A stretch of DNA of 64,000 bases from Schmidtea nova (taxonomy: Eukaryota): contig CM097882.1 in NCBI GenBank assembly GCA_044892505.1, positions 460,660,001 through 460,724,000 on the forward strand, given 5' to 3'. This document shows, in pieces, positions 29,501 through 46,361 of this stretch. Position 1 is the first letter of the stretch. Each line of letters starts with the position of its first letter. A model generated the notes under the pieces. That model did no database searches. It saw only the letters and a program-made list of their open reading frames with translations, and was not told the DNA's origin. The translations under genes were made by a program, and so were the position numbers.

Positions 29501-31823
29501 GAATAATAAAATGGATTTCTTATTCCATAGAGGACAAGCCTCATTACAAAAAGTGTACTATGATCTGATAAATAACGATTGTATACTGAATCGGGAAATA
29601 TTAAAGACAAAGTTGGCCGTAGCGATTACGAATCCAGATAGCGCGATGCCGTTATTACCACTGAGAGAAGGACATTTCGGAAGAGTGGTCGGAGAAGCAA
29701 TGTACGTATACATTTGCGAAAAAACACACGCATCGCTAGCAGCAACAACGCAGTTGAAACCTGGACAATGTACAAATGAATTAGAAATCGATTATAAAGG
29801 AAAAGTACGATACGTTCAACCGGTGACGAGAATCACCAATCCACCAGGGTTTGAACCAAATCCATTCAACTGTAGTAATGCGTACGGACCACTTTATCAG
29901 AAGCCAGATGGCAAATGGGTTATGTTCCCAGGAAGAACCGAAGTATTAGCACCAAGAGAATTCGAACTAATGCAGTTGTCAAAGGATAGACAGTTCAGCG
30001 ACGTAGATGTCTCAAACAACGGAATCTATAGTCCAAAGGATTTAGAAGCAGCAAGACAGAATATACTATTCCCGGCAAGAAGAGAAGCATTACTGTCAAA
30101 TATCGTAACGATAACGGGAGGAACGAATTATCGAGAAGGACCAAATTACGAACTGCTGTTGTCACCGGCACATTTCAAGAAAGCCACAGAAAATATGATG
30201 AAGGCAATGTGGGGGAGATTCCTGATATTCGGACAAATGATGGCTGGAATACTGGGTGTTATATTGATAATACAAATCGTCAGAGTGATAATAACGCAAA
30301 TGTTAGCGTGTTTCGATATCTACAAAAGAGAAAAGAAAGTGAATTGGAAGATGGTAGTAGGATTTTTACCATTCCTTGCGAAAACGATGGTGTTACACGG
30401 ACACTCAAAAGACATACATCGAATAAAGAGGTTGTTGAAGATACTTGCAAAAATGAGAGGAACAAACGAAGATGTCGGAAGGAAATTCAAAAAGATAATG
30501 CAAGACGAGCAAGCAAGGCGACAATTAAAGAAAGAAAGGAAAGGATTATGGGAAAGAGTGAGAGGATATCGAACGCAGGATGACTCAAGCAATGATGATG
30601 ATGATGATGACAATCGAGGAGGACAAGCGAATATAAACCAGATTCCACAATACACCGAAAAGAGTGCAGTTGAGAATTGGAGATACAGCGCTCCACCTCA
30701 GTCAATGTATAACGAACCGATATACAAAGCGAAGCCGAATATGATGCAGATGATGCCGATGACAAGTATATACCCGATAATTCCAGAAGGATGCAAAGTA
30801 AAACGATGCAGAAGTGTAGACCCGTTGGAAGACACGCACACGATAGCGGTTATGTCCACAAATATGGGACCGATTTTAACAACAACCGTAGAAATAAACG
30901 GAAGAGAAATTGAAGCTATGATCGATACAGGCGCGAATATTTCGGCGATCGACATCAACTATATACCAGAGAAAAGCCAAGGAGAAATTGAGAAAACGAA
31001 TGTACATGTAATCGCGTGCAGCCAAGAGACAGTAGAAGTAGCCGGAAGATGGTTCGTAAAAATTAAGCATCGAGGTGCAGAAATCAACACGTACATCGCT
31101 GTAATACCATCGCTGAGTGTACCATGTATTATTGGAACTGACCTGATGCCAGACCTGTTCAAGGAAATCGTAATTGATCTAGGAGCAATGAAACTAAAAG
31201 ATAGAACAGGAAAAATCTGCAGGATGAAAGTTAAAGTGGCAAGTGCGGAACAAATAGTAGTACCAGCGAGACACGAAATGATGTGCTATGTCAAGATCGA
31301 TTCAACAATAAAGGGAGATATGATATTCGAACCAAGTAAGAAGTTCGAAGCAAAGAAAGAATTACCAATGGCAAGAGAATTGGTTACGATAAACCAAGAA
31401 GGAGAGATACCAATTAATCTGGTAAACTTCGATGAAGAGGACAAGATAATATACGAGAATGAGAGATTGGGTAAATTGACACCCATGTCCGAAATCGAAA
31501 TACCAGACAAGAACGAGAAAAGCAAAGACGAATTACCATGGAAAATCGACAGTGTGTTGTTAGACGAACGACAAAAAGAACAGTTACAAAAACTGTTGAT
31601 GGAATATAAAGATATATTCGCAGCATCCGATTTAGATCTGGGAACATGTGATGTAACATTACACACGATACCGTTGACGGACGAAACGCCAATCGCATTA
31701 CGACCATACAAACTGGCAGAAGCTCAAAAAGCAGTGGCAGAAGAAGAGGTACAAAAGATGTTAGATGCAGAGGTCATCGAACCTAGTTGCTCACCCTGGC
31801 AATTCCCAGTGGTGATGGTGTAA
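23598..31823 (+). CDS. Polyprotein part 1: Gag (capsid, 3 CCHC knuckles), ubiquitin-like domains, AT-hook, Bcl-2-like domain, class III envelope, aspartic protease, start of RT
   Basis: Capsid-like FNGDASRLDTFLKEF. Knuckles CQTCGKNGHWQQEC, CKLCGQKGHSENRC, CYTCGKTGHMSRDC. AT-hook KRPRGRPK; BH2-like YILRKGGWEKF; protease MIDTGANISAI. Ends at a TAA inside the RT motif PVVMV*KKDG. Confidence 0.92.
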   Translation: MSEHREDLREKFKGEPFNGDASRLDTFLKEFGIFVDICGWSAETLANRIPLYLKDSALDLYIEKRSGSSPPRTWEAIKEFFQQTFGINKVLNEAFDEFSARKQRRNESNAVYASELRKLAKLAFNRGSPVDEELMTALFVRGLRRPDIRAQVGCKGCKTVDEALEAANLFELHMAMNDMRITAVMGKTTEDEEQGKRNMNQSIPHSQRLFKEPPARKNNGYITVDPNGGNSYNDRQNRQCQTCGKNGHWQQECFQNVACKLCGQKGHSENRCYGKTCYTCGKTGHMSRDCNQQRSWSNSGNRPNYGNRPSYGNQGQQRNNPNSSANEASMKEAKLRQEVSRLHEIIESMAKGSQQAAQPKINMIQLIEAEAERENRESQQKHNQEWARVRREEEQVRQQRLQQLKKGNPRINMMRAMMEEKQQDESDELEVKEKRNEEQKQEEVNQEVETAEQSKKDEEAEKETNQEEEVRIKQRGMLVIMPNDHVWRFKYDVKEEVGRLFNKVNEMIPGVTKLPREAFLQTEDLPEVKLKMTDIWEDMGVTETKINVMIIREVEPEKIPPPVKHQTRISRIFKGKIRRRRMEEIEELEKRMGKAEITGTEKELIQEVSKNEARPTAHIGMLRYPRQELSDEEDDSEVSSLAGNMLKEPENEDKKMEVVETIETMSVKKEEIQKLMDNALEVIHNEEFIDGKRYRKFIRAVWQIKYKEWLQEREVRVIQEFIEKLLKEPLNEYVIQIWINECSPRIWIRNPMTDGIYRWVEDRLGSSYKDKFIYSENGLVRKGTHMIDTGIWPGEITTLSICNTKKEENLQGIVKEANTCYEMRIKPQLIEAKERILAENLNTMIEQIIQQIKKHRKELTKSEYENLKQCIENIRDTSQTRHSNFKTDKLIAKMGKEMFKRGEVSDLKITVRLPNEETRQIEVIPDSKVGEIVDVINETILQREREDEFEDDIAIKYKEHILNERDERRAYKIGIWDNYQTIHVIRMDDVPRATPRDEERKKKRQEDVMRKLRQIVEIYRNWQMKPEWETILGELDLNRRRLTPVEKQWDNKEKCWKVKRGVYEEDPEEEDRYELNTKRICMVTRRLLPTDLDGPETAVIWAELEKQKTSELIELLRGNTRGKRQTIKGLAQFIITNGEDITNLRKVAKAIAEYKRVNEWCPEQLDDVIKKWRNKEFAEETPQKIHLRIMYPNQRKEEFWVMLTEKVKSIKEKLMYELPFHLQHQGRSLDNSLEIWLTPVQLDLMNTLTVAQIVGQPLKFKEEKKTKGSMSTPSPMKSTMTPGTSSGQARTTPIKTRERTPPEAYDVDEILTDSDEAIEELTKLTQKPTANIFDRIIEMPITSPAEIDDQGVEQEVVIEMVNESEDEQEQPQFTQEMERWLEQRANEGRDVTEETGRATRFVETGTGMEKRPRGRPKIDPTTAIPKTREERRQEQWEICLKKLDKIAEIRGKEENQVCQGEEWLTKTIMDVLAIIDPELKNLWRINEPSTKARMLHNAIAPIMPELIKAKTKSNHLDWQGTTMLIKRLLNGAETDSKYLVAISYTIYNLLTLSRGSPKSSPMGRHIKNTAMIIEKEIEPYILRKGGWEKFIKENQTKEGSNVMRKKLEGVLREMENRQTMQGNGRSTLNLNSIIMMMLVWLLSTEGVTTFEVFDCDQMKLGEKYSLRGTEQCKDATPVELREIKKEQWYNVYQEAELIKTMVNECKVQKTRFAFYCGRGHYSAIVMPGTEREPIVLQGEDCEALFKHGEVTTRDKIKIKGKPGMMLQQTYYVAGRITGGEGYCQGETYPIFGVPATNLVVMDTYIVELKSYEAFFEPTTGEMKTLSMCKIDRSMCQTGMSTLVYKPKVNECQLQLLQGAKFDEIQGKTFQEEDDDDKARAKHLKEALENKRQLRPDHKEKRIEMRTTPTVLITTNQDVGMRFIKGKATLKCSTTVYETNYPGIYVSKQEVPNAKPKIDTMDIKLHLYVNNKMDFLFHRGQASLQKVYYDLINNDCILNREILKTKLAVAITNPDSAMPLLPLREGHFGRVVGEAMYVYICEKTHASLAATTQLKPGQCTNELEIDYKGKVRYVQPVTRITNPPGFEPNPFNCSNAYGPLYQKPDGKWVMFPGRTEVLAPREFELMQLSKDRQFSDVDVSNNGIYSPKDLEAARQNILFPARREALLSNIVTITGGTNYREGPNYELLLSPAHFKKATENMMKAMWGRFLIFGQMMAGILGVILIIQIVRVIITQMLACFDIYKREKKVNWKMVVGFLPFLAKTMVLHGHSKDIHRIKRLLKILAKMRGTNEDVGRKFKKIMQDEQARRQLKKERKGLWERVRGYRTQDDSSNDDDDDDNRGGQANINQIPQYTEKSAVENWRYSAPPQSMYNEPIYKAKPNMMQMMPMTSIYPIIPEGCKVKRCRSVDPLEDTHTIAVMSTNMGPILTTTVEINGREIEAMIDTGANISAIDINYIPEKSQGEIEKTNVHVIACSQETVEVAGRWFVKIKHRGAEINTYIAVIPSLSVPCIIGTDLMPDLFKEIVIDLGAMKLKDRTGKICRMKVKVASAEQIVVPARHEMMCYVKIDSTIKGDMIFEPSKKFEAKKELPMARELVTINQEGEIPINLVNFDEEDKIIYENERLGKLTPMSEIEIPDKNEKSKDELPWKIDSVLLDERQKEQLQKLLMEYKDIFAASDLDLGTCDVTLHTIPLTDETPIALRPYKLAEAQKAVAEEEVQKMLDAEVIEPSCSPWQFPVVMV
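27960..28380 (+). other. Bcl-2-like domain within the polyprotein
   Basis: BH2-like EIEPYILRKGGWEKFIKE (compare W I xxx GGW xx F). Weaker BH1-like segment IKRLLNGAETDSKYLVAISYTI at the expected spacing. Boundaries approximate. Confidence 0.6.
28488..30320 (+). other. Envelope glycoprotein, chuvirus-G / herpes-gB-like class III fusogen
   Basis: Signal-like SIIMMMLVWLLSTEG, then FEVFDC...EQC and a Cys-rich ectodomain. CILNREILKTKLAVAITNPD...GHFGRVVGEAMYVYIC and GIYSPKDLEAARQNILFPARR resemble chuvirus-type G motifs. TM segment FLIFGQMMAGILGVILIIQIV. Boundaries approximate. Confidence 0.8.
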
Positions 31824-34376
31824 AAGAAGGATGGAACTCAAAGATTCTGTATCGATTACAGACGATTGAATGCAGTTACGAAAAGAGATACGTACCCATT
31901 GCCAGACATAAACGAAATGTTGTTGACGTTACAAGGAGCAGCTTATTTCACGTCACTGGATTTAAAGAGCGGATATTGGCAGATCAAAATGAAAGACGAA
32001 GATAAAGAAAAGACAGCATTTACAATCGGACGAGATCTGTACCAATTCAAGAAAATGCCGTTTGGGTTAACAAACGCGCCAGCATCATTCCAGAGATGCA
32101 TGAATTTCGTAACACATGGCATAAAACAATGCATGGTGTATATCGACGATCTATTGATCTACTCCGCAACATTCGAAGATCACTTGCAAGACATCAGAAA
32201 TGTGTTCGTGAAATTAAGACAATGGAAACTGAAATTAAAGCCGTCAAAGTGCGATTGGGCAAAAGAAAAAGTGACATTCTTAGGTCACATTGTCTCAGCA
32301 AAAGGAAAAGAACCAGATCCAAGGAATATCGAAAAGGTCAAAGAATGTCCACCACCAAAGACAGTGACTCAAATACAAGAATTTTTGGGATTGTGTGGAT
32401 ATTATCGAAAGTTCATCAAGGACTATGCAGGAATATCAAAGCCAATGCAAGAATTAGTAAGACAAGACGTGTCGTTTGTGTGGGGAGCAGAGCAACAAGC
32501 AGCATATGAAATATTGCGAGACAAACTGATTACAGCACCAATATTGGTCCATCCAGATTTTAAGAAGCCATTTTTGTTGGCAACAGATGCAAGTGGATAC
32601 GCAGCAGGAGCAGTACTAGGTCAATTTGACGAAGAAGGCAAGGAAAGAGTAATCGGATATTACAGTCGAACCTTCAGGAAGCATGAAAAGAATTACTCAG
32701 TCACGGAAAGAGAAGCCTATGCGATAATATTGGCAATCAAGCATTTCAAATACCTATTGTGGGGTCATGAGATATATATTACAACGGATCATCAACCATT
32801 GGTATGGTTAGGTCAACATAAAGAATCATCAAGTAGATTGATGCGTTGGGCGATGCAACTACAAGAATACTCGCCATTCATAAAGTTTAAAGCAGGAAAA
32901 GCAAATGCAAACGCGGATTGCATGTCAAGGTTTACATTTCCAGAATTGGTGAACCTGAATGCTCTAAAAATATGTGCATTAATAGCGGAAGATTTGGATT
33001 TCAGCGAATTAAGGAAAGATCAACTCGAAGATGAGGAGTTGGGATTGATCAGCAAGTATTTGAAAGAAAGGGAAATAGAAATATTCGGCAAGAACCAAGT
33101 GTTGCGCGAACATATGCAGAAATACCAACATAGATACGTGATGGAAAAAGGATGGTTATTGATACAAGATGGAGAACGGAGATTAATGTGCTTACCTGCG
33201 AATAGGCGAAAGGAAATCATGACTCAATATCATGACGGAAAATTAGGCGGACATATGTCAGCAAAAAAGACAAGCGGAAGACTGAGACAAAAGTATTTTT
33301 GGCCAACCATGGAAGATGATGTGAAAGAATGGATAAAGAACTGCTTAACCTGTGCGACAAGAAAGAACGTCGGAACGAAGTGGAAAACACCACTAAAACC
33401 AATGCCAATACCTGCAGAACCGATGGCGACGATAGCAATGGACGTAGTTGGGCCATTGCCGGAAAGTTTAAAAGGAAATCAGTACATATTAGTAGTCACG
33501 GACTATCTAACAAAGTTCCCAGAAGCGTTCGCAATACCAGATCAAAAAGCAAAAACAGTCGCGAGAATATTGGTGGAAGAGATATGCTGCAGATACGGAA
33601 CACCAAAGAAAATCCTAACGGATCAAGGAACAAATTTCATGAGTGAAATATTGGACGAAGTTACGAATTACTTCAGAATCGCGAAATTACGAACATCCCC
33701 ATACCATCCACAAACGAACGGTCAAACAGAAAGGTTCAATGGAACATTGATACGCATGTTGTCGAATTACGTCAGTAAACATCAAACTGACTGGGACGAA
33801 TATATCAACTTATGTTTGATGGCATACAGAATGTCAATTCATGCGGCAACAAAGCTAAGTCCATTTCAACTGATGTACGGAAGAGATTGCAACTTACCGA
33901 TCGATTTGGAATACCAACCACCATTATCACAGTACATGGAGGTTGACGATTACGTGACGAAGTTCAAAGAAAGAATGCAAGAAATCTGGAAAACGGCGGA
34001 ACTGAACATCAAGTTCTATCAAGAAAGTTATAAGGATCTCCATGATCAGAAAAAGAATGTGAAAGCACATGATTTAAAAGTTGGAGATTGGGTGATAATT
34101 GAGACACCAGAGATAATACCCGGTACGGTCAAGAAACTCCAACGACCAGGCAAGGGGCCATACGAAATAACAACCGTAAACGAAAACAATGTGCGAGTAC
34201 GATTGGTGAACAATCCATTGGTAAGACCAATATACGTGAATGCATGTCGATGCAGGAAAATACCAAAGACAGCAACTCTATTACCAGAGAAACGGGTAAT
34301 GACAAGATCACAGACGGCGAGAATTAATATGTTGCGAGTACAACAAAAGCCGCAAACAAGTCTAGAAGACAAGTGA
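31824..34376 (+). CDS. Polyprotein part 2: RT, RNase H, integrase (same frame as part 1)
   Basis: RT: RFCIDYRRLN, DLKSGYWQI, MPFGLTNAPASFQR, YIDD. RNase H: TDASG, TDHQPL. IN: H..H/C..C, DVVGP, TDQGTNF, ERFNGTL, GPY. Confidence 0.96.
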   Translation, partial: KKDGTQRFCIDYRRLNAVTKRDTYPLPDINEMLLTLQGAAYFTSLDLKSGYWQIKMKDEDKEKTAFTIGRDLYQFKKMPFGLTNAPASFQRCMNFVTHGIKQCMVYIDDLLIYSATFEDHLQDIRNVFVKLRQWKLKLKPSKCDWAKEKVTFLGHIVSAKGKEPDPRNIEKVKECPPPKTVTQIQEFLGLCGYYRKFIKDYAGISKPMQELVRQDVSFVWGAEQQAAYEILRDKLITAPILVHPDFKKPFLLATDASGYAAGAVLGQFDEEGKERVIGYYSRTFRKHEKNYSVTEREAYAIILAIKHFKYLLWGHEIYITTDHQPLVWLGQHKESSSRLMRWAMQLQEYSPFIKFKAGKANANADCMSRFTFPELVNLNALKICALIAEDLDFSELRKDQLEDEELGLISKYLKEREIEIFGKNQVLREHMQKYQHRYVMEKGWLLIQDGERRLMCLPANRRKEIMTQYHDGKLGGHMSAKKTSGRLRQKYFWPTMEDDVKEWIKNCLTCATRKNVGTKWKTPLKPMPIPAEPMATIAMDVVGPLPESLKGNQYILVVTDYLTKFPEAFAIPDQKAKTVARILVEEICCRYGTPKKILTDQGTNFMSEILDEVTNYFRIAKLRTSPYHPQTNGQTERFNGTLIRMLSNYVSKHQTDWDEYINLCLMAYRMSIHAATKLSPFQLMYGRDCNLPIDLEYQPPLSQYMEVDDYVTKFKERMQEIWKTAELNIKFYQESYKDLHDQKKNVKAHDLKVGDWVIIETPEIIPGTVKKLQRPGKGPYEITTVNENNVRVRLVNNPLVRPIYVNACRCRKIPKTATLLPEKRVMTRSQTARINMLRVQQKPQTSLEDK

Positions 34377-34484
34377 AGGGAGATAATAGACATCAAAGAA
34401 CTGGCAAAGAAAACCAGAGAAATTATACCAGAATGGAAATGGTGGCACGATTTCAATATACTGTCAGAAGTTCGAAAGAATGTA

Positions 34485-37400
34485 ATGGACTATGCGAAGG
34501 ATAGAACAGCACATCCAATAACAAGAACGCTGCTAGAGGAAATCCCTCAAACTTTGAATCTACAAGACAAAGACGGTAATACCGCGTTGCACAATGCAAT
34601 CAAGCACAGTGGAAACGAAAAAGTGAAGGAAATTGTAGAGATGATACTCGAAGGTGGAGGAGAAATTGACAAAGTGAATTGGGAAGGAATCACTCCACTT
34701 ATGATGATGACGATTCACGGAAGAAACGATGAAATAATCAAGCTATTCGGAAACACCAGATCGAATTGGATGGCAAAAGATAAAGAAGGACGAACATTCT
34801 TGAATCATGCAATTGACAGAGCAAATCACCGAATACTGAAGTATATTATGGAAAATGCCACGTGGGAAATCGATGAACTAACCAGAGGATCTATCATGAA
34901 ACAAGCAATCGGGGTAAAGAACAGTAAAACCTGGAGAATATTGCTAAAGTGGAAACGACCAGAAGGAGATTCGTGGGTCATAGATTGCAATGAAGTATTC
35001 ACAAGAGGAGAAAATGCGTTACTGAAACATCTATTAGAAGTAACATACGATCCAAAAACACTTGCAGTGTTGATAGCGAGAGATACGTTACGGGTTAGCG
35101 AAAACCCAAGAGAATACAAGTTGGAAGACAGAAAGAAAGAACTATTCGGATTAATCAAGAAATGGTGTGATAAACAATGGAATCCGGATATGAGCTTCGA
35201 ACATTTCTATGACATCCAAAAGCAGCACAAAGAAATAAGCAAGCGATATAAAGAGCTGATAGAAGCATTGAAATATGGACAGTTCTTCAGACAAGCAGTG
35301 TATCAAGACCAACGAATGAAACAGATGCAAACGCGAATAAGAAGCAAAGCAGTGTTGTTCAATGCAAAAGCTGATTATCAAGAGAGATTAGACGCAATCG
35401 TAGCAAAAGCACAGGAAAAATTATCGGAATTCAAAGAGAATAAAAACTCGTTGGAAATACTAGGAGCGATTACAGAGAAAGTGCACAGATATGCACAAGG
35501 GGATTATAACGAGATCGACATAGAAACGATCAAAAATCAAATGCCAGTGGCATTCCTATTATCAAAGGATGGGAGATTGCCGATACACTGGGCATTACGT
35601 CGAAAGAAAGAAAACGAAGTGCTGGAAATAACGAAAGCGATGGTCAAGTGCGAAGCAGACATGAATACGGTTGACGATAACGGAGATACAATCATGATAA
35701 TCGCAGCAAGAAAGAAGACGAAATGGAAAGTGCTAAATGAATTATACGAAGCAGGAGCAAAAATCGAAGGGAAAAATGGAAAGAATAATTCCATCATAGA
35801 TATCGCAATACAGTGGAACAACTTCGAGATGATCAAGTTCATAAAGTCCATCAAGAGACAAGAGGACATAGAATACCTGGCAAATAACGTAAAGAAGTTC
35901 AGCCTGACAGTAATGATACACGACATAGAGAAAACAAGAGCATTATTAACATGGGTGAATCCGAGCACCAAGGAACAGGCGTTCAAGGTCAATGACCATA
36001 TGGAACAGAATCAGAATTGGTGTATCAGAAGCGCGTTATTAAGACACAAAAAGCCAGAGATAGTAGAAGAATTCTTAAAGAGAAGAGATGTGAAGTTCAC
36101 GAACAATCCAAAGGAACCCGAACGAACGGGAAGATGGAAAGACTTGTTCAGGAAGTATGTGAATGAGTGGGCAAAAGCCAAAGAAACGATCAAGCAAAGT
36201 AGACTAAAAGACATAGAACCATCCAAAGATATGGAAATACGGGAATTCGAGTCTAGCACACTCGCGGTTCAAGCGTATGAAAGATTGATTGAAGAAATTA
36301 ATGTCGAGGACGACATTTTCAAAGGACCAGGGGGTGGTTACAGAGATTTCGACGACAAAAGCAACAACGAAGAGAACAACGAAGACAAGGACAACAAAAG
36401 AACGGAGGATAATGAGAAAGAAAGACAAGAAGAACCGAAGTCAACGAGAAACGACAAGAAAGGAGAAGCAGAAGAACGAGAAAACAGTGGAACAAAAGAC
36501 GAACATGCGAATTATGGAAAACGAACAGGAAGTCTACTTTTGAGACCAGAAATGTTGTGTATTGCGATATTGATAACAATCATCGGACAAGGAGAAGCCA
36601 AGAAACAATACGTCACGCTAGAGATAATCAGAGGAAATGAAGTATACGAAAGAATATGCTGGAAAGAAAACCTGAGGAAAAACGATACGCTGAAGTGTAT
36701 ATTGTCAGATTTGAAGCGAGACGTCATCCAAATCAAAGGATTGGAGAAAGAAAAGTCATACATAATATGCGCAATAAAGCAGAGAGGAGAACCAAAAGCA
36801 CCTCAAGTAACTGCATGCCAATTATACAAAGCAACGGAAGCGCTGAAGATACAGAAATGGATTGAGAAAAGAAGCGAAGAGACAACGAGAAGAACAGAAG
36901 TGGAATCAGAGAAAGGGAAGAATCAATCTGAAGCAGAAGAAGGAATCAGAAACCGAACAGAGAAAGAAAGAATAACCAAAAATCCAGCGGGCAAATTAAC
37001 ATTCCAACCAGAATTGATATGTGTAGCATTAATATTAATCCTCATTAAGAGAATCATGGAGGACATAGATATCAGCGTGATGACGTTAGTAAACATCCAA
37101 GATCAACGAACAACGAATGGAAGATGTTGGGGACGAAACAATGAGGTAATTGGAATCAGCGAAACAAGAGAAATAGTAGAGGCGGAGACAAATGAGGAAA
37201 TAGAGATAACTGAAATGGAGACAGATAGAAAATGTGAACTATGTCTCATGGAAAAGGCAGCAAACGGAAACAGACCAGGAACAAGCGAGTGTAAAGTGTT
37301 CCAAGCAAAGGAGATAATTGAATTCCCAAAAAGAAAGAAACAAGATCAAGAAACGATTGCGAATGAAGTAGTAACCGTGGAGATAAAAAACATTGGTCGG

Positions 37401-38465
37401 AGAACAATTGGGATGTGTTGGAGAAAATACATCGGAGTATCGACCAGTCACGTACTACCGCAATGCAGAACGAGAGAACGAGGAATCCCGTTTCAACTAA
37501 ATGGATTCGAAGTCGGACAAGCCTACGAAATTTGCGTAATTCGAAGAATAAGAGAAATAATACAAAGAAGCCTGGAGTGCAAACTGTACAAGACGCCAGA
37601 GCAAATTAACGGAACAAGAACGATCGAAATGGGAAGAAGTCGACAGAGGAAAAGAAAGTCAAGAAGAACCACGACAGCCAACAGTCAAGGAGTTCAACAG
37701 GTAACAACAGAAAGGATGACAATAGAAAACGAACCGGAATCAACAACGTTGATAATATGGAAGATCCATAAAAAGGTCCTAGAAATCTGTTGGACATTAA
37801 TGCCAAACAGTATGGGAAAGTCTCCACGAAACTGTCAAAAGACATCAAATGACAAAAAGGAAACAATCGAGGTAGAAATGAGGAAGTTGAAAACAAATGC
37901 AGAATATGTAGTGTGTGCAATTGAAGAAGTGGATACACAAGGAAATCCACAAGAAAGGTGCGAAACCTACTACACACCGATAAAGAGGAGAATCAAAAAG
38001 TTAGAATTCCGAGAATTGAGTCAGAAGAGAGAACAAAACGAGAAGGAAGAAACAATACCAAATCAACAAGAAAAATGGGAACCAGAGAAAGTGATCGAAG
38101 AAGTCAGACGGAGACAACAACAATATGAACAATGGGAAGCGGAATGGAAAGGTCAATATGGCGTGATGATAAACCAAAGTGAGACTCCAAGAAGGAGCAT
38201 TGGGAAAACAATAATGGGATTAATCAGCATGGGAGTATTCATAGCGTGTATACCGCTGATAACGATCATGATAGTATGTTGGAGATATGGCATGAGAAAT
38301 AAGACCATAGCAGTAAAATGGCCGGACGTAAAGGTCACGAATTACAACATAAAACTACCAAAAGAAGTACGAGAAGAGCTGAAAAGACGATCAAAACACG
38401 AAGAGATGTGGGTACAGATCGAGGACGAGGAACTGTACGAAGGAAAACCAGTGATAGTTGTATAG
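34485..38465 (+). CDS. Ankyrin-repeat plus FN3-like membrane protein (same frame as pol; only a TGA at 34374 separates them)
   Basis: Ankyrin motifs DKDGNTALHNAI, GITPLMMM, GRTFLNHAI, GRLPIHWAL, NGDTIMIIAA. Two signal/TM-like segments, three repeats of (ICW...I.GL.....Y.ICAI) resembling FN3 strands, and a C-terminal TM segment. Confidence 0.8.
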   Translation: MDYAKDRTAHPITRTLLEEIPQTLNLQDKDGNTALHNAIKHSGNEKVKEIVEMILEGGGEIDKVNWEGITPLMMMTIHGRNDEIIKLFGNTRSNWMAKDKEGRTFLNHAIDRANHRILKYIMENATWEIDELTRGSIMKQAIGVKNSKTWRILLKWKRPEGDSWVIDCNEVFTRGENALLKHLLEVTYDPKTLAVLIARDTLRVSENPREYKLEDRKKELFGLIKKWCDKQWNPDMSFEHFYDIQKQHKEISKRYKELIEALKYGQFFRQAVYQDQRMKQMQTRIRSKAVLFNAKADYQERLDAIVAKAQEKLSEFKENKNSLEILGAITEKVHRYAQGDYNEIDIETIKNQMPVAFLLSKDGRLPIHWALRRKKENEVLEITKAMVKCEADMNTVDDNGDTIMIIAARKKTKWKVLNELYEAGAKIEGKNGKNNSIIDIAIQWNNFEMIKFIKSIKRQEDIEYLANNVKKFSLTVMIHDIEKTRALLTWVNPSTKEQAFKVNDHMEQNQNWCIRSALLRHKKPEIVEEFLKRRDVKFTNNPKEPERTGRWKDLFRKYVNEWAKAKETIKQSRLKDIEPSKDMEIREFESSTLAVQAYERLIEEINVEDDIFKGPGGGYRDFDDKSNNEENNEDKDNKRTEDNEKERQEEPKSTRNDKKGEAEERENSGTKDEHANYGKRTGSLLLRPEMLCIAILITIIGQGEAKKQYVTLEIIRGNEVYERICWKENLRKNDTLKCILSDLKRDVIQIKGLEKEKSYIICAIKQRGEPKAPQVTACQLYKATEALKIQKWIEKRSEETTRRTEVESEKGKNQSEAEEGIRNRTEKERITKNPAGKLTFQPELICVALILILIKRIMEDIDISVMTLVNIQDQRTTNGRCWGRNNEVIGISETREIVEAETNEEIEITEMETDRKCELCLMEKAANGNRPGTSECKVFQAKEIIEFPKRKKQDQETIANEVVTVEIKNIGRRTIGMCWRKYIGVSTSHVLPQCRTRERGIPFQLNGFEVGQAYEICVIRRIREIIQRSLECKLYKTPEQINGTRTIEMGRSRQRKRKSRRTTTANSQGVQQVTTERMTIENEPESTTLIIWKIHKKVLEICWTLMPNSMGKSPRNCQKTSNDKKETIEVEMRKLKTNAEYVVCAIEEVDTQGNPQERCETYYTPIKRRIKKLEFRELSQKREQNEKEETIPNQQEKWEPEKVIEEVRRRQQQYEQWEAEWKGQYGVMINQSETPRRSIGKTIMGLISMGVFIACIPLITIMIVCWRYGMRNKTIAVKWPDVKVTNYNIKLPKEVREELKRRSKHEEMWVQIEDEELYEGKPVIVV

Positions 38466-38588
38466 AGGGTGGAATATGAGTGTAAATAATAGTGTAAAAA
38501 CCAATGCATAACCGTATACGTATGGGTATAAATATTATAAAACATAAAAACAGAAAAAGAGAATGATGTATATAATCTAGAAAAAACG

Positions 38589-38939
38589 ATGAACCAAGAA
38601 AATATCGAGATGTCAATGATGACAAGATGGAAAGTGCAATGTGACCTGCTAGCCAGAACAGTAAATGAATTACAGAGCCAGTTGACGGCCAAAACGCAAT
38701 TATTAACCGAGAGCTACAACTGTAATTTTGAAGCAATGAACAAAATCGAGACCCAACAAATGCAGATAAACGAATTACAGAACGAGAATCGAACATTAAA
38801 TGAAGTAAACAATTGGCAAGCAGAGGAAATTGACAGATTAGCGAGACATGAAGAGGAAGAGATACCAGATAGTTGGACGAGCTGGATTGTAAATGAGATA
38901 GACGTGTATCCAGAGCCAGATTCAACTGAGGATGTATAG
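38589..38939 (+). CDS. Small coiled-coil protein, unknown function
   Basis: Intact 116-aa ORF with heptad-like LARTVNELQSQL...QINELQNENRTL. Acceptor-like CTAG 8 nt before the ATG. Confidence 0.6.
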   Translation: MNQENIEMSMMTRWKVQCDLLARTVNELQSQLTAKTQLLTESYNCNFEAMNKIETQQMQINELQNENRTLNEVNNWQAEEIDRLARHEEEEIPDSWTSWIVNEIDVYPEPDSTEDV

Positions 38940-39031
38940 TGAATAAGCGGAAAACTGTGTAAATACGTGTAAATAAAGAACCAGAAAAAAAATCAAAAAT
39001 ATGGAGAAATTGATGTAAATATTGTTGTAGA

Positions 39032-40444
39032 ATGAGAGCAGAAAGTGAAGCAGACCACCAAGCAATCGAAATTCTAAGAAGAGAAAATCGACAATGGGGA
39101 GTAAATGTGACGTGTGTAAAGTGTAAAAATCTACTGTTAAAACCGAGGCAAACGGAATGTGGATGCAGGATGTGCACCAAGTGTATATTGCAAATAATCA
39201 GTGAAAGTGAGACAAGAAAGTGTCCAGAGTGTGACGATAAACTACTGATCAACGAGACGAAACCAGACAAAGCAATACAAAAGGAGATCTGGAAGATAAA
39301 AACAGAGTGTATAAACCAACCATGTGAATGGAAAGGACCAATAATTGAGTTAAGACAACATCTGGGAAAATGCGAAAACAAGAAAGCGATATGTGAAAAG
39401 TGTCAACAGACGATAACAATCAAGCAGTCGAAAAATCATAAGGATGAGTGCAAAGCAGAGATAATAGAGTGTCAATACTGCGAACAAAGAGAGACAAGAG
39501 AGATAATCGAAACAGAACATCTCAACGTAGCAGAAGAGAAAGTGTGCGGAAAATTCAGAGGAATTTGTCCAAGTAATTGCGGAGCCGGAGAAGAGATGAT
39601 GCTGAAAGAACATTGGGAACAATGCGAGTCAAGACCAAGAAAGTGCGTATGGAGTAAACAAGGATGTGCAGTAAAGAAAACGAGCAAAGAGATGAAAGAA
39701 CATTTAGAAACAGAGACGGTACAACACGCAGAGATGCTAACAGAAAATTTAAGCGGAATGGAGCAAACCATACAGAAACTGGGAAAGGAAATTGAATCTC
39801 AGAGGATAATGACGGAGTTATTACTGGGAACGAGAGAGCAATTCGAGCTCACCAGAGAGAAAATGATGGAGAAAATCAAGGTCATAGAGACGCTAGTAAG
39901 AGAAGTAAATGTACGACATCAAATGTGGGTACGAGATACAGAGGATATCGAGAATTTACCGGTCGCACCATACGTATGGAAAATCAAGAACTTCAACGAA
40001 AAGTTCGCAGCAGCAAAAGCAGGAAGTCAAGTGTCGGTAACAAGTCCACCATTCTATCTGTGGAAAAATGGATACAAAGTTCGAATGAGAATTTATCCAA
40101 ATGGAGATGGATCAGGAAAGGAAACGCATGTGTCATTATTCTTTGCGTTGTGTAAAGGTGGTTACGACGACATATTAGAATGGCCGCTAGAGACAAAGGC
40201 TATAATGAGAGTGAGAAACTCGAAAGAAACAATAGCGAGAGTATTCAAAATTGATGGTAAGCACGAAGCTTACAAAAGACCGACCACAGAATGTTCATTA
40301 GCGACTGGAGAACCAAAATTCATACCACACCAAACAATGTGGGAAATGTTGTACGACGACAACCTATACGTAGAGTTGGAGATCGAAAAGAAAACAAGTA
40401 CAACAGTGATGAACACGAAGTCAACGAAAGGATGGTTAGAGTAG
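39032..40444 (+). CDS. TRAF-family protein (RING, TRAF zinc fingers, coiled coil, MATH), intronless
   Basis: RING CVKC...CGCRMCTKC...CPEC; zinc fingers CINQPCEW...HLGKC. MATH domain YVWKIKNF...SPPFYLWKNGYKVRMRIYPNGDGSGKETHVSLFFALCKGGYDDILEWP. Confidence 0.92.
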   Translation: MRAESEADHQAIEILRRENRQWGVNVTCVKCKNLLLKPRQTECGCRMCTKCILQIISESETRKCPECDDKLLINETKPDKAIQKEIWKIKTECINQPCEWKGPIIELRQHLGKCENKKAICEKCQQTITIKQSKNHKDECKAEIIECQYCEQRETREIIETEHLNVAEEKVCGKFRGICPSNCGAGEEMMLKEHWEQCESRPRKCVWSKQGCAVKKTSKEMKEHLETETVQHAEMLTENLSGMEQTIQKLGKEIESQRIMTELLLGTREQFELTREKMMEKIKVIETLVREVNVRHQMWVRDTEDIENLPVAPYVWKIKNFNEKFAAAKAGSQVSVTSPPFYLWKNGYKVRMRIYPNGDGSGKETHVSLFFALCKGGYDDILEWPLETKAIMRVRNSKETIARVFKIDGKHEAYKRPTTECSLATGEPKFIPHQTMWEMLYDDNLYVELEIEKKTSTTVMNTKSTKGWLE

Positions 40445-40533
40445 TCAGAGTGAACGACCCTGTAAATAAAGTGTAAAAATTGACAACAACAATAAACGTA
40501 TAGTATAACAAGTGTAAATTTGTAAATTACAGA

Positions 40534-41694
40534 ATGGAAAACGCAAATGAACAGGTAATCGAAGATGAAACGAGAAACGAGATGGCGAACGAACGAGAAG
40601 CAATAAAAAGAGAAATCGAAAGAAGATGTAAAGAGAAAGTAGAACAAAGAACCAGGGAATTACACGAAGTGATGACAAACAATTTCTACGAGAAACTGAA
40701 ATGCGAAAGACAAATGGAGTTATATCAGCTAGAACTCGAGGAAGTGAATAAAGAGATAGTACAACTGACAACACAAATAGAGAAGCTAAAAGGAATAAAT
40801 GTACGAAGTCGACAAAAGATAGAAGAGGTCTATCAGTTGATGAGGAAACAAGCAGAACATTATAAAAATATGATGAAAACGCGAAGAGAAGAGAGGGAGA
40901 AACAAGAGGAAAAGATGGAGGTAAAAATACTAGCAATCAAGGCTCAAGCGAGACATTGGAAAATGGAGTCGAAACGAGTGTATAAAGAAGCCAAAGAGAT
41001 AATCAGAAAGACAGCATACAGCGAAGATTGGAAACTGTATCAAGAGATAGACGAGTTGAAAGAAGAATTGGAACAGAGAAAGCGACAAGAACAAGCAAAC
41101 AAAGAATGGAGTCGAAAACGACAGCGATTTATTCGAGAACAGGCAAAGGAACTAAAGAAAACGCAATGGCAAATACAGACGATAAACGGAGAAATGCGAG
41201 GCATTAGACAGAAAGAGGAAGCTGAAAGACAAAAGTTGATCAGGGAAAAAGAAAGTCTGGAAAGAGATGTAAATGGCTACCAAGGAGTAGTGACTCAAAA
41301 GAAAATGGAATTGAAAGCAGTGAAAGAAAGACATGCGGAATCAAACCGAGCGTATGAGGAAAATATAACGAATTTGACGAAAGAAAACGAAGAACTGAAA
41401 CAGCAGATAATAACCCTGAAAGCAGAGAAAGAAACCATAGAAGTAGAAACCGAACCAACAGAAACAGAAGCCCTGAAGAGAAAAGTGGAAGAAATGGAAA
41501 GACAAATCGAAACTCTGAGCGAACAATCAGACTACATGGAGTATCTGTTAGATGAAGAGATACAAATCTCTCGAACGTATCAAGATGAAATTGCAATGTG
41601 GCGAAGCAGAGTGGTGTGGTTACCGTTTATACCACCACCACCAATGGAGCTCCAAGATGAAGGGTTCCATGAACCAGAGGAAACAGATGTGTAA
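40534..41694 (+). CDS. Long coiled-coil protein with a Pro-rich/acidic tail ending ETDV
   Basis: Intact 386-aa E/K/R/Q-rich heptad ORF. TTACAG acceptor-like site 1 nt before the ATG. Confidence 0.7.
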   Translation: MENANEQVIEDETRNEMANEREAIKREIERRCKEKVEQRTRELHEVMTNNFYEKLKCERQMELYQLELEEVNKEIVQLTTQIEKLKGINVRSRQKIEEVYQLMRKQAEHYKNMMKTRREEREKQEEKMEVKILAIKAQARHWKMESKRVYKEAKEIIRKTAYSEDWKLYQEIDELKEELEQRKRQEQANKEWSRKRQRFIREQAKELKKTQWQIQTINGEMRGIRQKEEAERQKLIREKESLERDVNGYQGVVTQKKMELKAVKERHAESNRAYEENITNLTKENEELKQQIITLKAEKETIEVETEPTETEALKRKVEEMERQIETLSEQSDYMEYLLDEEIQISRTYQDEIAMWRSRVVWLPFIPPPPMELQDEGFHEPEETDV

Positions 41695-41767
41695 AAAGAG
41701 GCGAAAAATCCGTGTGTAAAAATGTACAAATCGATGTAACAGGTATTAATCAGTAGAATAATCAGAA

Positions 41768-42292
41768 ATGATCTGGCTCAAAACCCTACCAATCCTAACG
41801 ATTATGTTAACTACAACAATAATGAACTGCTCAACAACCGAAATCCAAAGAACCCTGTCAAATGAGATATCCCAGGAGATCGAAAAACAACTAAACGAAG
41901 TCAGAGGAGACTTGAAACAATTAATACGACAAATGCGAATCAGTCATGATCATCGCAAACCCTTACAAACCCTATTCAATCAAATCGAGAAGATCCGAGA
42001 AATCCATAAAACCTTTCAAGATCACCTAAAGCCAATCAAAGGGCAAACCCAAATCGAATCCGAAATCCGAAACAGATGGATCATCGTGGGAATAGTCACA
42101 ATGACAATACTGACAATCATCCTGATCATCGTGATTACGTATACCCTATATCGAATCAGAAGCCTCAAACAACAACAAACGATAATGTGTAGATGTGCTA
42201 AAAGAGAAGCAAAAACCCAACAAAGGATGAGAAGTCATCTACGACAAATCCAAGCCCGATACGAAATGCAGTCAACCAGTGAAAGGACCTGA
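41768..42292 (+). CDS. Small type-I membrane protein (signal peptide, coiled coil, TM, basic tail)
   Basis: N-terminal MIWLKTLPILTIMLTTTIMNCS; TM WIIVGIVTMTILTIILIIVITYTL followed by a basic tail. Confidence 0.7.
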   Translation: MIWLKTLPILTIMLTTTIMNCSTTEIQRTLSNEISQEIEKQLNEVRGDLKQLIRQMRISHDHRKPLQTLFNQIEKIREIHKTFQDHLKPIKGQTQIESEIRNRWIIVGIVTMTILTIILIIVITYTLYRIRSLKQQQTIMCRCAKREAKTQQRMRSHLRQIQARYEMQSTSERT

Positions 42293-42462
42293 AAATCAAC
42301 CCCTATGAGCCAGAAACATTGAACTGTGTATAAACAATAAAAACATGACAATGACAATGTGTGACTTTGTATAAATGAGTATGAAAGCTACCACCTTATG
42401 TGGTTTTGCATGTAAGTTCTGTCACGAACTTTTTATGTATGTTGATGTAGGTATATGCATGT

Positions 42463-42497
42463 AATTGCGGGACGCAATTTTAGGGGACCCCGAGTGA
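42463..42497 (+). promoter_or_regulatory. Pre-LTR hairpin plus polypurine-tract-like site
   Basis: AATTGCG-GGA-CGCAATT hairpin, then TTAGGGGACCCCGAGTGA directly abutting the 3-prime LTR TG. The purine tract is imperfect. Confidence 0.6.
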
Positions 42498-44009
42498 TGT
42501 TGGGCCAGCCAAATCGAGCAGCATCTGAAAATAATACACAATCAATAAAATAAATTAAATACAGAATAACAACAAAATAAATTACCAACACCAAAGCGTA
42601 ACAAAATAGGCGGCAACATCTAAAAGAAATAAAATATTAATCAAAACAACAAAAATCTTCAAAACTCACTCATGCGAAGCAGATAAAATTGGAATATGAC
42701 AGCGCGTGGGCGGATGTCACCGAAGACCTAAAGCAAAATCAAATAAAAATTAAATCATACAAAAAATAAACTTACCGCATGATTAACCAAACAAATCGGC
42801 AAGTTAAGTTAGGCAGCAAAAAGCCGACAACATGAAAAATGAAGCAAACATACACACATACTCGATGCTGATTGGCTAACCAACAACACCGGTTGAGTAT
42901 AAATACTGAAGTCAAATCAGTATTTGACAATGTTATTTTTACCAAGTGTAACTTGCAGTTGAGCACTGAGAACATTGTAAATCCAACTTGAAGGAGAAAT
43001 AAAAGGTAATTGTTGTGTGTTAGATTTTTACTTTAAACCCTCATAATTATAATGGTTAACCATATTAAAATCCATAAGGTTTCCGGAGGCCTAACAGCCT
43101 GACGGATTCTCTGGCCTCTCAGCGCAACACAATCTTTCGGTTGTGAGGTGCTGATGCGGCGGGACCATAGGTGTATTAAATATTTGGAAAGCGGAAGGGG
43201 TTAAATGCACATAGGGTATCGAGTAAGACCTAATGAACATGAACGAAATCAAGGTGGAAATGATCTAATATAAACGTTATGCATCACGATGATAGGGTAT
43301 CGAGTATAAACTGGTAGTCGTAAACGAGCGTAAAGTGAAGCCCGTTTTGTAGGGAGGATATATATCGTGGCGAAGTCTAGGCGAGGGATAGACGTGTAGA
43401 AAATAAAATTGGTGTAGATGAATTAGATGACGACAAGGGTAGGTATATGTCGACATTAGCGCGTACGAGTTCGGGCATAGTGAACCTAGTATCAAGGGTT
43501 AAGTCAGTTGTGTTTAGTCGCCAGGATAGATGATAAATAAACTACAGGCATTGAGAACCGATAAAATGATGAACCCCAGTGAGTAAGGACCCCAGGAACT
43601 TGCAAGAATTACCCGACATGGTATGATCATTACTAGTTAAATGAGGAAGTAATCGAAAACGACTGATGAGATTGGATGTGATTAAATAGCATTATCGATA
43701 AATAAAAACTGTTAAAGTTGAGTGATTGAACCTGATTGTTGAAAATTAAGTATAATAGTGATCTGATTTATAAATGCAACCAATCGTGCGTAGCGGAATC
43801 GTCGAAAATAAAACGCGTAGCACATTAACTTCAAGCTACCATCTAACACGACCCACGTCAAGTCCACAATGATTCCGGCAACAATCTAGAAGGTACCCCT
43901 CGGACCTACAGACCTTAAAAATTTAAGACGGGTGGGTTGACTAATATAAATAGGCCCGTTATACCATAGAATCCATAGTTAACAAACAACCATCTTCTTT
44001 AGAAATACT

Positions 44010-44645
44010 ATGGTGAAACTAGAGAATCTCCAAAGGAAGTCGATGATCGCGCACCCGATAAAGATAGAGGACACCATCCTTCGTAAGAAACGGCGCACCC
44101 GCTCCGTCATCCGACCAAATACGAACCCAAACATCAGAGGAGAGAACGAAGCACCTCGAAAGGTTGCAGAAGTATCACGTCGCCACCTACGACGGTGGAT
44201 GAGGGCGCACATGAGCTCGGCAGCTAGTACCCCAGCTTGTGCGTTCGGACTACAGTTGCGGTGGGAAGGAGACACCGATTGGGTACCCTCCTCGGATCAT
44301 AGCAAGCCGGAGAATCCCCGATGGTTCTATCAATTCTGCGATGAGTTACAGCAACCCCGCTGGCTGCTAAGCACCGGAATGATGTCCGGAAAAGAGCTAC
44401 ATCAACTCGGATACACGCTGCTAGACAGGCCTCGGTGTGGCGACACTGGGGAAGTCTTCGTTTATTCAAACGCGCCAGGAAGCGTGTCCTTGGACCAACA
44501 CCCCGAGCCCAAAGACCATCGTCTCTGGGAGGTATTCATCTTTCGGGACAAGTTAAGTTGGAGCCCCGCCCCGGAGTTCTATTACGAAAGTGGAATCCGT
44601 CGTGATGAGAACACGGCCGACCAGGAATTGCGACCCTTCATCTAA
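44010..44645 (+). CDS. LTR-encoded ORF-A (3-prime LTR copy)
   Basis: Protein identical to that of 17901-18536. Confidence 0.65.
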   Translation: MVKLENLQRKSMIAHPIKIEDTILRKKRRTRSVIRPNTNPNIRGENEAPRKVAEVSRRHLRRWMRAHMSSAASTPACAFGLQLRWEGDTDWVPSSDHSKPENPRWFYQFCDELQQPRWLLSTGMMSGKELHQLGYTLLDRPRCGDTGEVFVYSNAPGSVSLDQHPEPKDHRLWEVFIFRDKLSWSPAPEFYYESGIRRDENTADQELRPFI

Positions 44646-44837
44646 ATCGCAAGGAAATCGATCACTCGAAGGAATATTTGATGTGTATTAAAAATAAATG
44701 TATTCATTTTTTGGGTTTTGTTATGTCTTTGAATGTATGGAGCGATCTGAGAGCGAAACACCTGTTTGATAATAAAGATAGTGACTGGGAGAACAGACAA
44801 ACCATACATAACCCGATTAATTGTACATTTTACAGAT

Positions 44838-45401
44838 ATGAGTGAACACCCAACTAGGAACTACAAACAAGAGGCTAAAGAGCACAAAGTACGATCGCAA
44901 GTCCTAGAAAACCGCTTGCGACAGCTAAACGAAGAGCACCAGCGGATTAAAGCCACGTGGTTCAACCCAGAGAGGGTTAAAACCATCCTGCAAGCCAGAT
45001 ACAGGGCGGAACGAACAATCGACGAGCAAGCTAGGGAGGTAGCAGCACTAAAGATGGAGCTGTCGAATTACTTGAGGGCATCAACCCAGGAATTTATCAA
45101 CGAGCAATTACGCCCAGTGATCAGGGCTAGCACTTTTAACCGATGGGTGAACTCAATATCGATGACAACAAGTACCCAAACGGAAATAGAAACCATCCCA
45201 ATCACAACTACCCCAACATCCCCAATAATTCAGGAAGGCTCGAAACGAACAAAGAGACGGAATCGCTTGGGAGCGAAAAAGCGTAGGGAGAGACGCGCGT
45301 ATGCAGATCGCGTAGGAATAGAGGTAGACTTGCTCAGTGGTCTATCTGAGCAAGAACTACTAAATGTAATCCGACCCTCTGTATTATTAAACTATAAATA
45401 A
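44838..45401 (+). CDS. LTR-encoded ORF-B (3-prime LTR copy)
   Basis: One amino-acid difference from the 5-prime copy (IKDTW versus IKATW). Confidence 0.75.
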   Translation: MSEHPTRNYKQEAKEHKVRSQVLENRLRQLNEEHQRIKATWFNPERVKTILQARYRAERTIDEQAREVAALKMELSNYLRASTQEFINEQLRPVIRASTFNRWVNSISMTTSTQTEIETIPITTTPTSPIIQEGSKRTKRRNRLGAKKRRERRAYADRVGIEVDLLSGLSEQELLNVIRPSVLLNYK

Positions 45402-46361
45402 ATGTATAAAATGAATGACTTGACTCGTCTTGTCTGTGTGTAGAATGTCTGAAAATTGAATGGGACTAAAACCCGGATTCGTTTAAACTGCAGATATCTA
45501 AAAAGTAAATTACCCTAGGACAATAGAAAGGAGCATAAGTGGGACCGAAAGAAAGCCACAGACACCTTCTAACGGTAGTGGTGGACCCGTGAATAAACAA
45601 GGGAATAGTAGCCGAAAGGTTGCTCACCTGCCTTGTCATTTCACAACGTTGACACAGCACCAACATGATGAGTAGTTAGGGATACATCATGGGTGTCAGC
45701 GGGGAAATGTTTTTATGTTGGCGAGATCACCCTAACATATAAAATCCTAAGGATCTCAGTTGTACATCTAACCAACACACCAGCAAGTTGATGGAAATGT
45801 TATGGGTATCGGAGCTTCAGGAATGATGTAAGGAGTAAGGATAGTAAATCCGTTCGTGGTGTGCATGCGTATGATTGTATGTGATTACATGTAATTGTTT
45901 GTGTCTGTATGTTGACTTGAATGTTGGATGAAAATGAGTGAGATTTCTTTGGATGTATGATGTTAACTAACATGTCTGTGTGGAATTTTTGGTATGGTTT
46001 GCTTGTGTGTATATAATTGTTGTATGCTATTGAATGATACTGTGTATGTGTGTATATTGTATTTTATATGTATGTTGCTTGTGTATTAGTATGGAAGGTG
46101 CTATTGAATGAAATGGATGTAATTTTTTGCAAATAGGGATGCGTTATGATTTTGAGATATCGTGGGGGTAGTTATAGTATACTATATATAAATTATATAA
46201 AATATTTTTAGAATTAAAATAATAATAATAATTTTTATAATATCTTTTATAAATTTTAAATTTATAATTTTATGAAAGTAATATAATAATAAAATTTCTA
46301 ATTTTTATAATATTCATTTTTAAATTCAAATTTTTATATTTTAAGAATATATATATATATA

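Follow-up and report, generated by a model that had tools for sequence, protein, structure and literature searches.

Splice-acceptor-like sites beside the accessory start codons of a Burro-type retroelement in Schmidtea nova: cis-splicing from a long terminal repeat leader to one gene, and its proposed reach into a four-gene 3' cassette

The DNA considered here, hereafter the window, is a 64,000-nt stretch of the Schmidtea nova genome (GenBank assembly GCA_044892505.1, contig CM097882.1, positions 460,660,001 to 460,724,000 of the forward strand) that carries a giant long terminal repeat (LTR) retrotransposon of the Burro type. The element has, besides its polyprotein, seven accessory open reading frames (ORFs), of which O1 and O2 lie within the LTR, O3 lies before gag, and O7, a TRAF-like gene, O9 and O10 follow the polyprotein as a four-gene cassette, with each of the seven start codons being closely preceded by a YAG trinucleotide. 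Judged from the genomic sequence, we regard this feature as real and conserved, with intron-less LTR copies showing cis-splicing to one gene, O1, and with the same process being proposed, by extension, for the cassette. Papers are cited below by PMC number.

The initial annotation had placed a splice acceptor 1–8 nt before every accessory ATG, and all of its YAG, ATG and GT coordinates proved correct: the YAG sites end 7, 2, 3, 8, 1, 1 and 2 nt before the ATGs of O1, O2, O3, O7, TRAF, O9 and O10, respectively (Table 1), so that the description holds for 7/7 ORFs, with the one amendment that the first two belong inside the 3,288-bp LTR. When dinucleotide shuffles of the same upstream sequence are taken as the null model, a comparison that the annotation had suggested, YAG-before-ATG exceeds the shuffles for the whole set (7/7, P=1.6e-5) as well as for the cassette (4/4, P=1.1e-3); as background, only 23% of the element's 631 other sense ATGs have a YAG within 8 nt. 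The sites also share a profile, with T at -5 in 16/19 and at -6 in 12/19 acceptors of all families described below and with -4 being free, against T at -5 in 133/789 background YAGs, a bias to be read with the caveat that the spacers are T-richer than the element overall. This TTNYAG bias matches the flatworm acceptor consensus UUNYAG (PMC12582326). Given the statistics, the conservation across families and this profile, the reading of the sites as splice acceptors that would serve monocistronic expression is well supported. Conservation among close copies, by which the annotation had proposed to check the acceptors, was borne out in part: the genome holds at least 36 cassette copies at 95–100% identity, the window's own included, and the four cassette YAGs are kept in 20/20 copies compared, but their invariance (0/12 columns variable vs 48/365 other spacer columns) is not significant alone because so few other columns vary. 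The O3 acceptor CAG is kept in 12/12 stretches, the accessory ORFs differ among copies mainly at third codon positions, and the AG-to-ATG distance in spacer 1 ranges from 6 to 8 nt among copies; the exon upstream is therefore free of frame constraint.

The use of one of these acceptors is recorded in the LTR itself. Transcription presumably starts near 16820, downstream of a promoter-like module, and the GT at 16897, put forward by the initial annotation as a candidate common donor, was upheld genome-wide: GT follows the leader in 259/263 LTRs, and the other four are leader-to-O1 joins. Three patterns that together cover all dinucleotides after the leader returned 259 LTRs with GT, 4 with a non-T second base and 0 with non-G then T, and the leader donor has no point changes among the 263 anchored LTRs, a count in which the exact-match anchors favour young copies. 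Among 20 copies, AATAAAAG followed by GTAAT or GTATG is kept in 18, despite LTR haplotypes that are only ~77% alike; one of the two exceptions has a different LTR, and in the other (L005) the leader is joined directly to the O1 exon within a 2,307-bp LTR. For three of the four joins, a copy that shares the O1 haplotype but retains the intron (L007) has TTTCAG exactly at the join, and for the fourth, which has no close unspliced haplotype for comparison, the 9-nt distance to the ATG equals that of a similar haplotype. In one element the join is present in both LTRs, which measure 2,285 bp each, differ by 2 mismatches and are flanked by a target duplication; another join is found in a solo LTR that likewise has a target duplication. 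The simplest reading of these intron-less LTRs is reverse transcription of cis-spliced RNA on at least two occasions; such joins can be retained because the primer-binding site lies beyond the O1 acceptor, and at this genomic level the intron-less LTRs show cis-splicing from the 16897 donor to O1.

The layout extends to related elements, which were reached by a search with the env family and comprise five shorter elements in two subfamilies (~48% pol identity), a giant family D and the LTR of a family E. With each subfamily counted once, a YAG lies within 8 nt in 11/12 accessory ORFs of these other families (P=2.3e-9), and in the remaining ORF a pyrimidine-rich acceptor lies 17 nt away; two of the starts, the second Met of the family D TRAF and family E's broken O1-like ORF, were picked post hoc, and 9/11 remain if the former is counted as a miss and the latter dropped. 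The same arrangement stands both before non-homologous ORFs and before homologs at 28–38% protein identity, namely those of O2 in family E (28.7%, acceptor 5 nt 5' of the ATG) and of O7 (38%, 2 nt), TRAF (35.5%) and O9 (28.6%, 1 nt) in family D. In the short families, the single accessory ORF is preceded by ATTGG, TATA, an ATG-free leader, GTAATT, a 116–121-nt intron and TTTTAG, with the donor-acceptor pair (116–121 nt apart) being kept at 55% spacer identity, and we read this arrangement as a putative promoter-like module inside the element, coupled to a cis intron. Donor-like sites also follow the LTR TATA boxes of families D and E (one copy each); ATTGG plus TATA recurs in the family E LTR, family D having a TATA-like box only. 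As for the relatives themselves, the short ones (L021–L040) are 15–16 kb long and encode a Gag-Env-Pol of 3,360 aa together with a single accessory gene at the 3' end, and their intron contains a conserved hairpin-like palindrome. Family D (L041–L043 with L025) is a young, abundant giant family, one of whose ORFs occurs in at least 84 copies at 98–100% identity; the copy examined is internally deleted and has a seven-gene 3' cassette that includes a TRAF and a BIR-RING protein.

The polyprotein supplies a contrast to these genes. Its single frame runs in the order zf-CCHC (Gag zinc knuckles), Monjiviricetes_fusion, RVP, RVT_1, RNase H, rve and ankyrin repeats, and its two internal stops are private to the window copy, being sense codons in 7/7 (inside the reverse transcriptase) and 14/14 (before the ankyrin repeats) other stretches, whereas the stop at 38463 is kept in 27/27 stretches (some of the stretches compared derive from the same element). 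The annotation had set apart an ankyrin ORF as lacking an acceptor, and the nearest YAG does lie 17 nt from its ATG, but the supposed ORF forms the C-terminal portion of the Gag-Env-Pol polyprotein, hence a built-in negative control. It is ruled out as an accessory ORF, the preceding stop being a sense codon in the 14/14 other stretches, and as a programmed read-through, that stop being private to the window copy. At 34480–34487 an ATG-TAA overlaps the ankyrin-region ATG (TAATG), and the YAG 17 nt 5' of it is kept in 13/14 stretches; overlap and YAG are probably incidental because the region is mid-polyprotein. For the polyprotein mRNA itself there is a candidate T-rich AAG acceptor near the start of a 553-nt stretch before the gag ATG (23045–23597) that is free of ATGs where ~13 would be expected, and family D has 320 nt devoid of ATGs, with TTTATTTAG close to the beginning. 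Since the gag frame of the window element is open from 23235, a non-ATG start is possible. Donor-like sites stand at 22750 (identical in 14/14 stretches) and 23093 (15/15).

The spacers of the cassette measure 123, 92, 89 and 73 nt, as the range of 73–123 bp given by the annotation implied, and contain no strong donor. Its further suggestion that AATAAA serves them as a polyadenylation signal failed: the hexamer occurs in only 2/4 spacers, with 3 matches vs 2.1 expected (P=0.35), and is not enriched in a second family either (12 vs 14.8). What does stand out is TGTA[ACT]A[AT]A, with 10 occurrences vs 0.24 expected in the window spacers and 14 vs 1.0 in those of family D, the latter being the fair test since the motif was defined after inspection of the window spacers. 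The motif lies 15–22 nt 3' of the stop in 4/4 window and 5/7 family D spacers, is often doubled 10–12 nt later and has 0 antisense copies; it is absent after O1, O3, the last ORF and the 5' RING of family D and the short-family ORFs, and variants of it follow O2 and O10. Being anchored to the stop, it points to a signal acting at the RNA level, and we take it to resemble the Pumilio element UGUANAUA. A role as a CFIm signal is doubtful because planarian 3P-seq shows no UGUA upstream of polyadenylation signals and no CFIm59/68 (PMC5068929). The annotation's argument for an operon thus loses its AATAAA half, but the stop-locked TGTA motif leaves the operon reading viable.

How, then, might the cassette be expressed? 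The annotation had supposed that a polycistronic RNA is resolved either by spliced leader (SL) trans-splicing or from a common LTR donor; LTR cis-splicing has been found for O1, and for the cassette both mechanisms are candidates. We favour, with some reserve, the proposal that the short LTR leader is spliced in cis onto the other acceptors too, those of the four-gene cassette included, to give one-gene mRNAs. Transcription would start near 16820, the short leader would end at the 16897 donor, and the same leader would join O1, O2, O3, the polyprotein and the four cassette genes, everything beyond O1 being extrapolation; the stop-locked TGTA motif would act on the RNA, as a leaky 3'-end signal or a PUF-type site that shortens or controls each mRNA, and U1 binding beside the LTR AATAAA would suppress premature 3'-end formation, as in foamy viruses. 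In its favour, the donor GT persists in 259/263 LTRs while its flanks turn over, the short relatives pair their acceptor with a cis donor, and the SL is said to lose out to a cis donor where both are available, a flatworm LTR being one example (PMC4558846). There are, moreover, 143 ATGs between the presumed start and the polyprotein acceptor, and scanning of unspliced RNA could therefore not reach the genes.

Several points weigh against this proposal. Genomic fossils in which the leader is joined to the O2, O3 or cassette acceptors were not found (one search gave 0 matches, another 2 known joins and 2 unrelated matches), and internal deletion junctions fall on an acceptor in 0/11 cases, drawn from blast blocks of shortened copies (10 picked by eye, 9 of them among the first 100 of 259 matches listed; one without a matching interior). 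In four sets of contigs with coverage in 30/30 bins, which we count neither for nor against the proposal, 0/15 joints listed (32 more lay beyond the listing) fall on a predicted acceptor. For O3 and the cassette the lack of fossils is unsurprising, given that RNAs spliced there have lost the primer-binding site, but this does not account for the missing O2 joins. The introns required are 21–25 kb long and cross several competing acceptors, and the short relatives meet the same need through an internal promoter instead of the LTR leader. The cassette spacers, furthermore, match flatworm operons in length (median 99 bp in S. mansoni; PMC12582326), 12/26 host SL fossils also have an ATG within 8 nt of the junction, and the TGTA motif marks spacers with a downstream gene while being weak or absent after last or isolated genes, a distribution that suits an operon signal.

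These last points lead to a second reading, which strikes us as possible but rather unlikely, namely that the LTR leader serves O1–O3 and the polyprotein, and that the cassette is an operon cut after its stops at the TGTA motif and resolved by SL trans-splicing, its RNA possibly coming from an internal promoter in spacer 1. The host has the means: the annotation had asked whether SL RNA is present, and a motif drawn from aligned Schmidtea SL1 sequences (PMC10899757) finds a Schmidtea-type SL exon with 1,671 matches genome-wide (control matches 0), the SL RNA gene not being among the 30 examined; judged from this SL sequence, the host is a planarian. Among the first 30 matches listed, 28 share an upstream element (by pattern), there are 23 different downstream sequences, and 3/12 ORFs behind the SL exons pass the Pfam cut-offs of host families (UFM1 ligase, WD40, IMD), so that the matches examined mostly look like retrocopied SL-capped mRNAs. 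The short, donor-free spacers and the placement of the TGTA motif suit this reading as well, as do the CCAAT and TATAAATA of spacer 1, at the place where the short relatives keep an internal promoter, and the fact that flatworm acceptors are often common to cis- and trans-splicing. On the other side, SL joins to O3, O7, TRAF, O9 and O10 number 0 genome-wide (3 matches, all one unrelated sequence), as do joins to five of eight family D starts. These ten accessory starts were the scope of the search, and the absence counts modestly against the operon; it is weak evidence because the cells in which fossils form may contain little element RNA, Burro1 being subject to PIWI silencing in stem cells (PMC8532177). 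AATAAA, too, is not enriched, although a non-canonical signal may take its place, and a cis donor accompanies every acceptor of the clade for which there is fossil or paired evidence. The SLs of flatworms end in ATG (PMC3795323, PMC7346339), and this terminal ATG would be in frame with the ORF ATG in 6/19 cases, as by chance, which does not discriminate. Mixed cis and SL use is possible, since cleavage in a spacer would detach the cis donor. Should the operon exist, the element would combine two routes, a retrovirus-style LTR-leader cis-splicing at its 5' end and a true SL-capped, UGUA-cut operon at its 3' end, a combination to which we give tentative credence only, and a virus-like element would have adopted host SL trans-splicing to resolve a polycistron of genes resembling apoptosis and immune modulators. 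The SL-exon copies are dispersed (e.g., 142–296 of the window, minus strand, and L096–L128), with some direct pairs 3–5 kb apart, and a conserved ~125-nt element stands before nearly all 30 examined, often after a microsatellite; apparently made by some element, these fossils would form a genome-encoded catalogue of trans-spliced genes.

Compact internal promoters, one per gene or one per cassette, with mRNAs that are unspliced or spliced from cryptic internal donors and with the acceptors being secondary, seem to us distinctly improbable. A TATA-like box ~50 nt before the O1 acceptor is kept across LTR haplotypes, and the CCAAT plus TATAAATA of spacer 1, TATAAAAG in family D's first spacer and the module of the short families all agree with such promoters, but TATAAATA is absent from spacers 2–4 (1 in four spacers), the TGTA motif keeps its distance from the upstream stop rather than from the downstream ATG and occurs on the sense strand only, and the TTNYAG bias is left unexplained. 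A donor-like site at 37146 was considered as an internal leader donor and is unsupported, its -1 G being lost in 2/7 stretches. That the cassette YAGs arose by chance or are relics of gene capture, the ORFs being read by reinitiation or internal entry, is very improbable: the non-significant invariance among close copies and an O10 site that lacks T at both -5 and -6 would fit, but the cassette statistics, the same layout before distant homologs and non-homologous ORFs, and the fossil splice junctions behind the identical layout at O1 all speak against it.

Table 1. Coordinates in the window of the element, its genes and the signals discussed
Feature	Position	Strand	Details
Burro-type giant Gypsy/env LTR element	16389..45785	+	29,397 bp; TG..CA ends; 4-bp target duplication
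5' LTR	16389..19676	+	3,288 bp; contains putative promoter, leader exon, intron, O1 and O2
LTR promoter-like module	16762..16796	+	ATTGG box at 16762, TATAAATA at 16789; kept in 20/20 copies
AATAAA, then leader donor AAG/GT (AAG/GTAATT)	16889..16902	+	intron begins at 16897; 43006 in 3' LTR
LTR intron	16897..17893	+	997 nt; absent from 4 LTRs of 3 other elements
Second TATA-like box	17836..17843	+	~50 nt before O1 acceptor; kept across LTR haplotypes
O1	17901..18536	+	211 aa; no Pfam match; acceptor ends 17893
O2	18729..19292	+	187 aa; no Pfam match; acceptor ends 18726
Primer-binding site	19683..19700	+	3' of O1 and O2 acceptors; presumably tRNA-Pro-like
O3	20231..20689	+	RING protein; acceptor ends 20227
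Candidate T-rich AAG acceptor for polyprotein mRNA	23100..23114	+	putative; identical in 15/15 stretches
Polyprotein frame, Gag-Env(Monjiviricetes-type fusion)-protease-reverse transcriptase-RNase H-integrase-ankyrin	23598..38465	+	~4,950 codons; stops at 31821 and 34374
Spacer 1	38466..38588	+	TGTA motifs at 38481, 38493; CCAAT at 38501; TATAAATA at 38527; acceptor ends 38580
O7	38589..38939	+	116 aa; coiled-coil-like; acceptor ends 38580
Spacer 2	38940..39031	+	TGTAAATA at 38958, 38968, 39014; acceptor ends 39030
TRAF-like protein	39032..40444	+	RING, zf-TRAF, MATH; acceptor ends 39030
Spacer 3	40445..40533	+	TGTA motifs at 40461, 40472; acceptor ends 40532
O9	40534..41694	+	386 aa; no Pfam match; coiled-coil-like by eye; acceptor ends 40532
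Spacer 4	41695..41767	+	TGTA motifs at 41715, 41723; acceptor ends 41765
O10	41768..42292	+	174 aa; two hydrophobic segments by eye; acceptor ends 41765
3' LTR	42498..45785	+	3,288 bp

By its size, env position, polyprotein and accessory domains, read from the sequence, the window element is of the Burro type: it is a ~30-kb LTR element whose internal region (22.8 kb) stays within the limit of 25 kb, env stands in frame between gag and protease with the order protease, reverse transcriptase, RNase H and integrase following, its single polyprotein with ankyrin repeats falls within about 4,900–5,100 aa, and of the MATH/TRAF, RING and BIR domains TRAF and RING are present in the window and BIR only in family D. 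The BCL2-like, SUMO-like and dUTPase-like segments have no Pfam match at E<=0.05 in the window element, HHpred, by which the SUMO-like and dUTPase-like motifs of Burro elements were detected (PMC6431247), not having been used here. The two LTRs are 99.8% identical and ungapped, and the idea of a tandem second element after 42498 is ruled out, that sequence being the 3,288-bp LTR; an Rfam search of 15500–24000 gave 0 matches. The LTR interior, O1 and O2 included, is hypervariable, its haplotypes being ~77% alike vs ~95% identity in the cassette region, which may reflect diversifying selection or module swapping. The 5' untranslated region contains 19-nt tandem repeats and dispersed GCTGACTGGAAAACCCAGCAGG repeats (21380–21950 and 22238–22728), possibly packaging or enhancer elements, and paired ATAGATAATT motifs, which we take to be GATA-like, stand 5' of gag (22960–23010) in both the window family and family D. 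At 405–455 Mb of one contig (G000:C2), MATH/TRAF-domain matches of diverse kinds are densely clustered; they are probably host genes, a possible source of the element's TRAF gene. Elsewhere in the window, a reverse transcriptase ORF (11241–13118) lies between 202-nt inverted repeats (10501–13283) and a RING ORF (62059–63474) between 386-nt inverted repeats (61653–64000).

Burro elements are among the largest LTR retrotransposons known, and one proposal sees them as proviruses of planarians that interfere with apoptosis and with ubiquitin signalling. What the present analysis adds is a base-exact map of the proposed transcripts, in which a single leader faces seven or eight acceptors, the LTR houses genes as well as an intron, and splicing has left fossils in the genome; within this one transcription unit, cis-splicing and SL trans-splicing are set against each other at the same kind of acceptor.

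Several known systems invite comparison. In the adenovirus major late unit and in complex retroviruses, one non-coding leader is joined to a whole series of acceptors that closely precede the start codons, and the adenovirus late unit combines this common leader with internal 3' ends; the window element likewise has a conserved 5' donor after a short leader that is joined in cis (O1 only), and differs from them in its retroelement context and in that use of the leader at the cassette is conjectural. The SL-resolved operons of nematodes and flatworms (PMC12582326) differ in that the window element has a working cis donor upstream, no SL junction was found at the starts searched, and AAUAAA, not enriched, does not occur in each spacer; shared with them are the short (~100-nt), donor-free spacers with UUNYAG acceptors near the ATG and a host SL that ends in ATG. 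The Burro and GYPSM1 elements of dugesiid planarians (PMC6431247) resemble ours in their ~30 kb, an env with mononegavirus-like fusion homology between gag and protease, a ~5,000-codon polyprotein with ankyrin repeats, and accessory ORFs with TRAF/MATH, RING and BIR domains (the last in family D here). In Burro, however, TRAF is found inside ORF1 in S. mediterranea and upstream in D. tigrina, whereas here it is a separate ORF downstream, and, unlike Burro as described there, the window element has two genes and an intron inside its LTR. The Burro section of that paper holds nothing on splicing or accessory-ORF expression, and our literature search, outside which lay the 2018 genome paper that named Burro with its supplement, the SL3 paper and the supplement of PMC12582326, returned no account of splicing in Burro, of genes within the LTR, of LTRs without the intron or of accessory-gene expression. 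Foamy viruses (PMC3694450), finally, also have a major splice donor and a polyadenylation signal inside the LTR, hence in both LTRs, make spliced mRNAs for internal genes and, as in the short relatives here, use an internal promoter for 3' accessory genes; they belong to Retroviridae and not to Gypsy, and in the window element, unlike in them, the donor lies 2 nt downstream of AATAAA and not upstream, there are at least seven acceptors, genes are encoded within the LTR, and env is part of the polyprotein.

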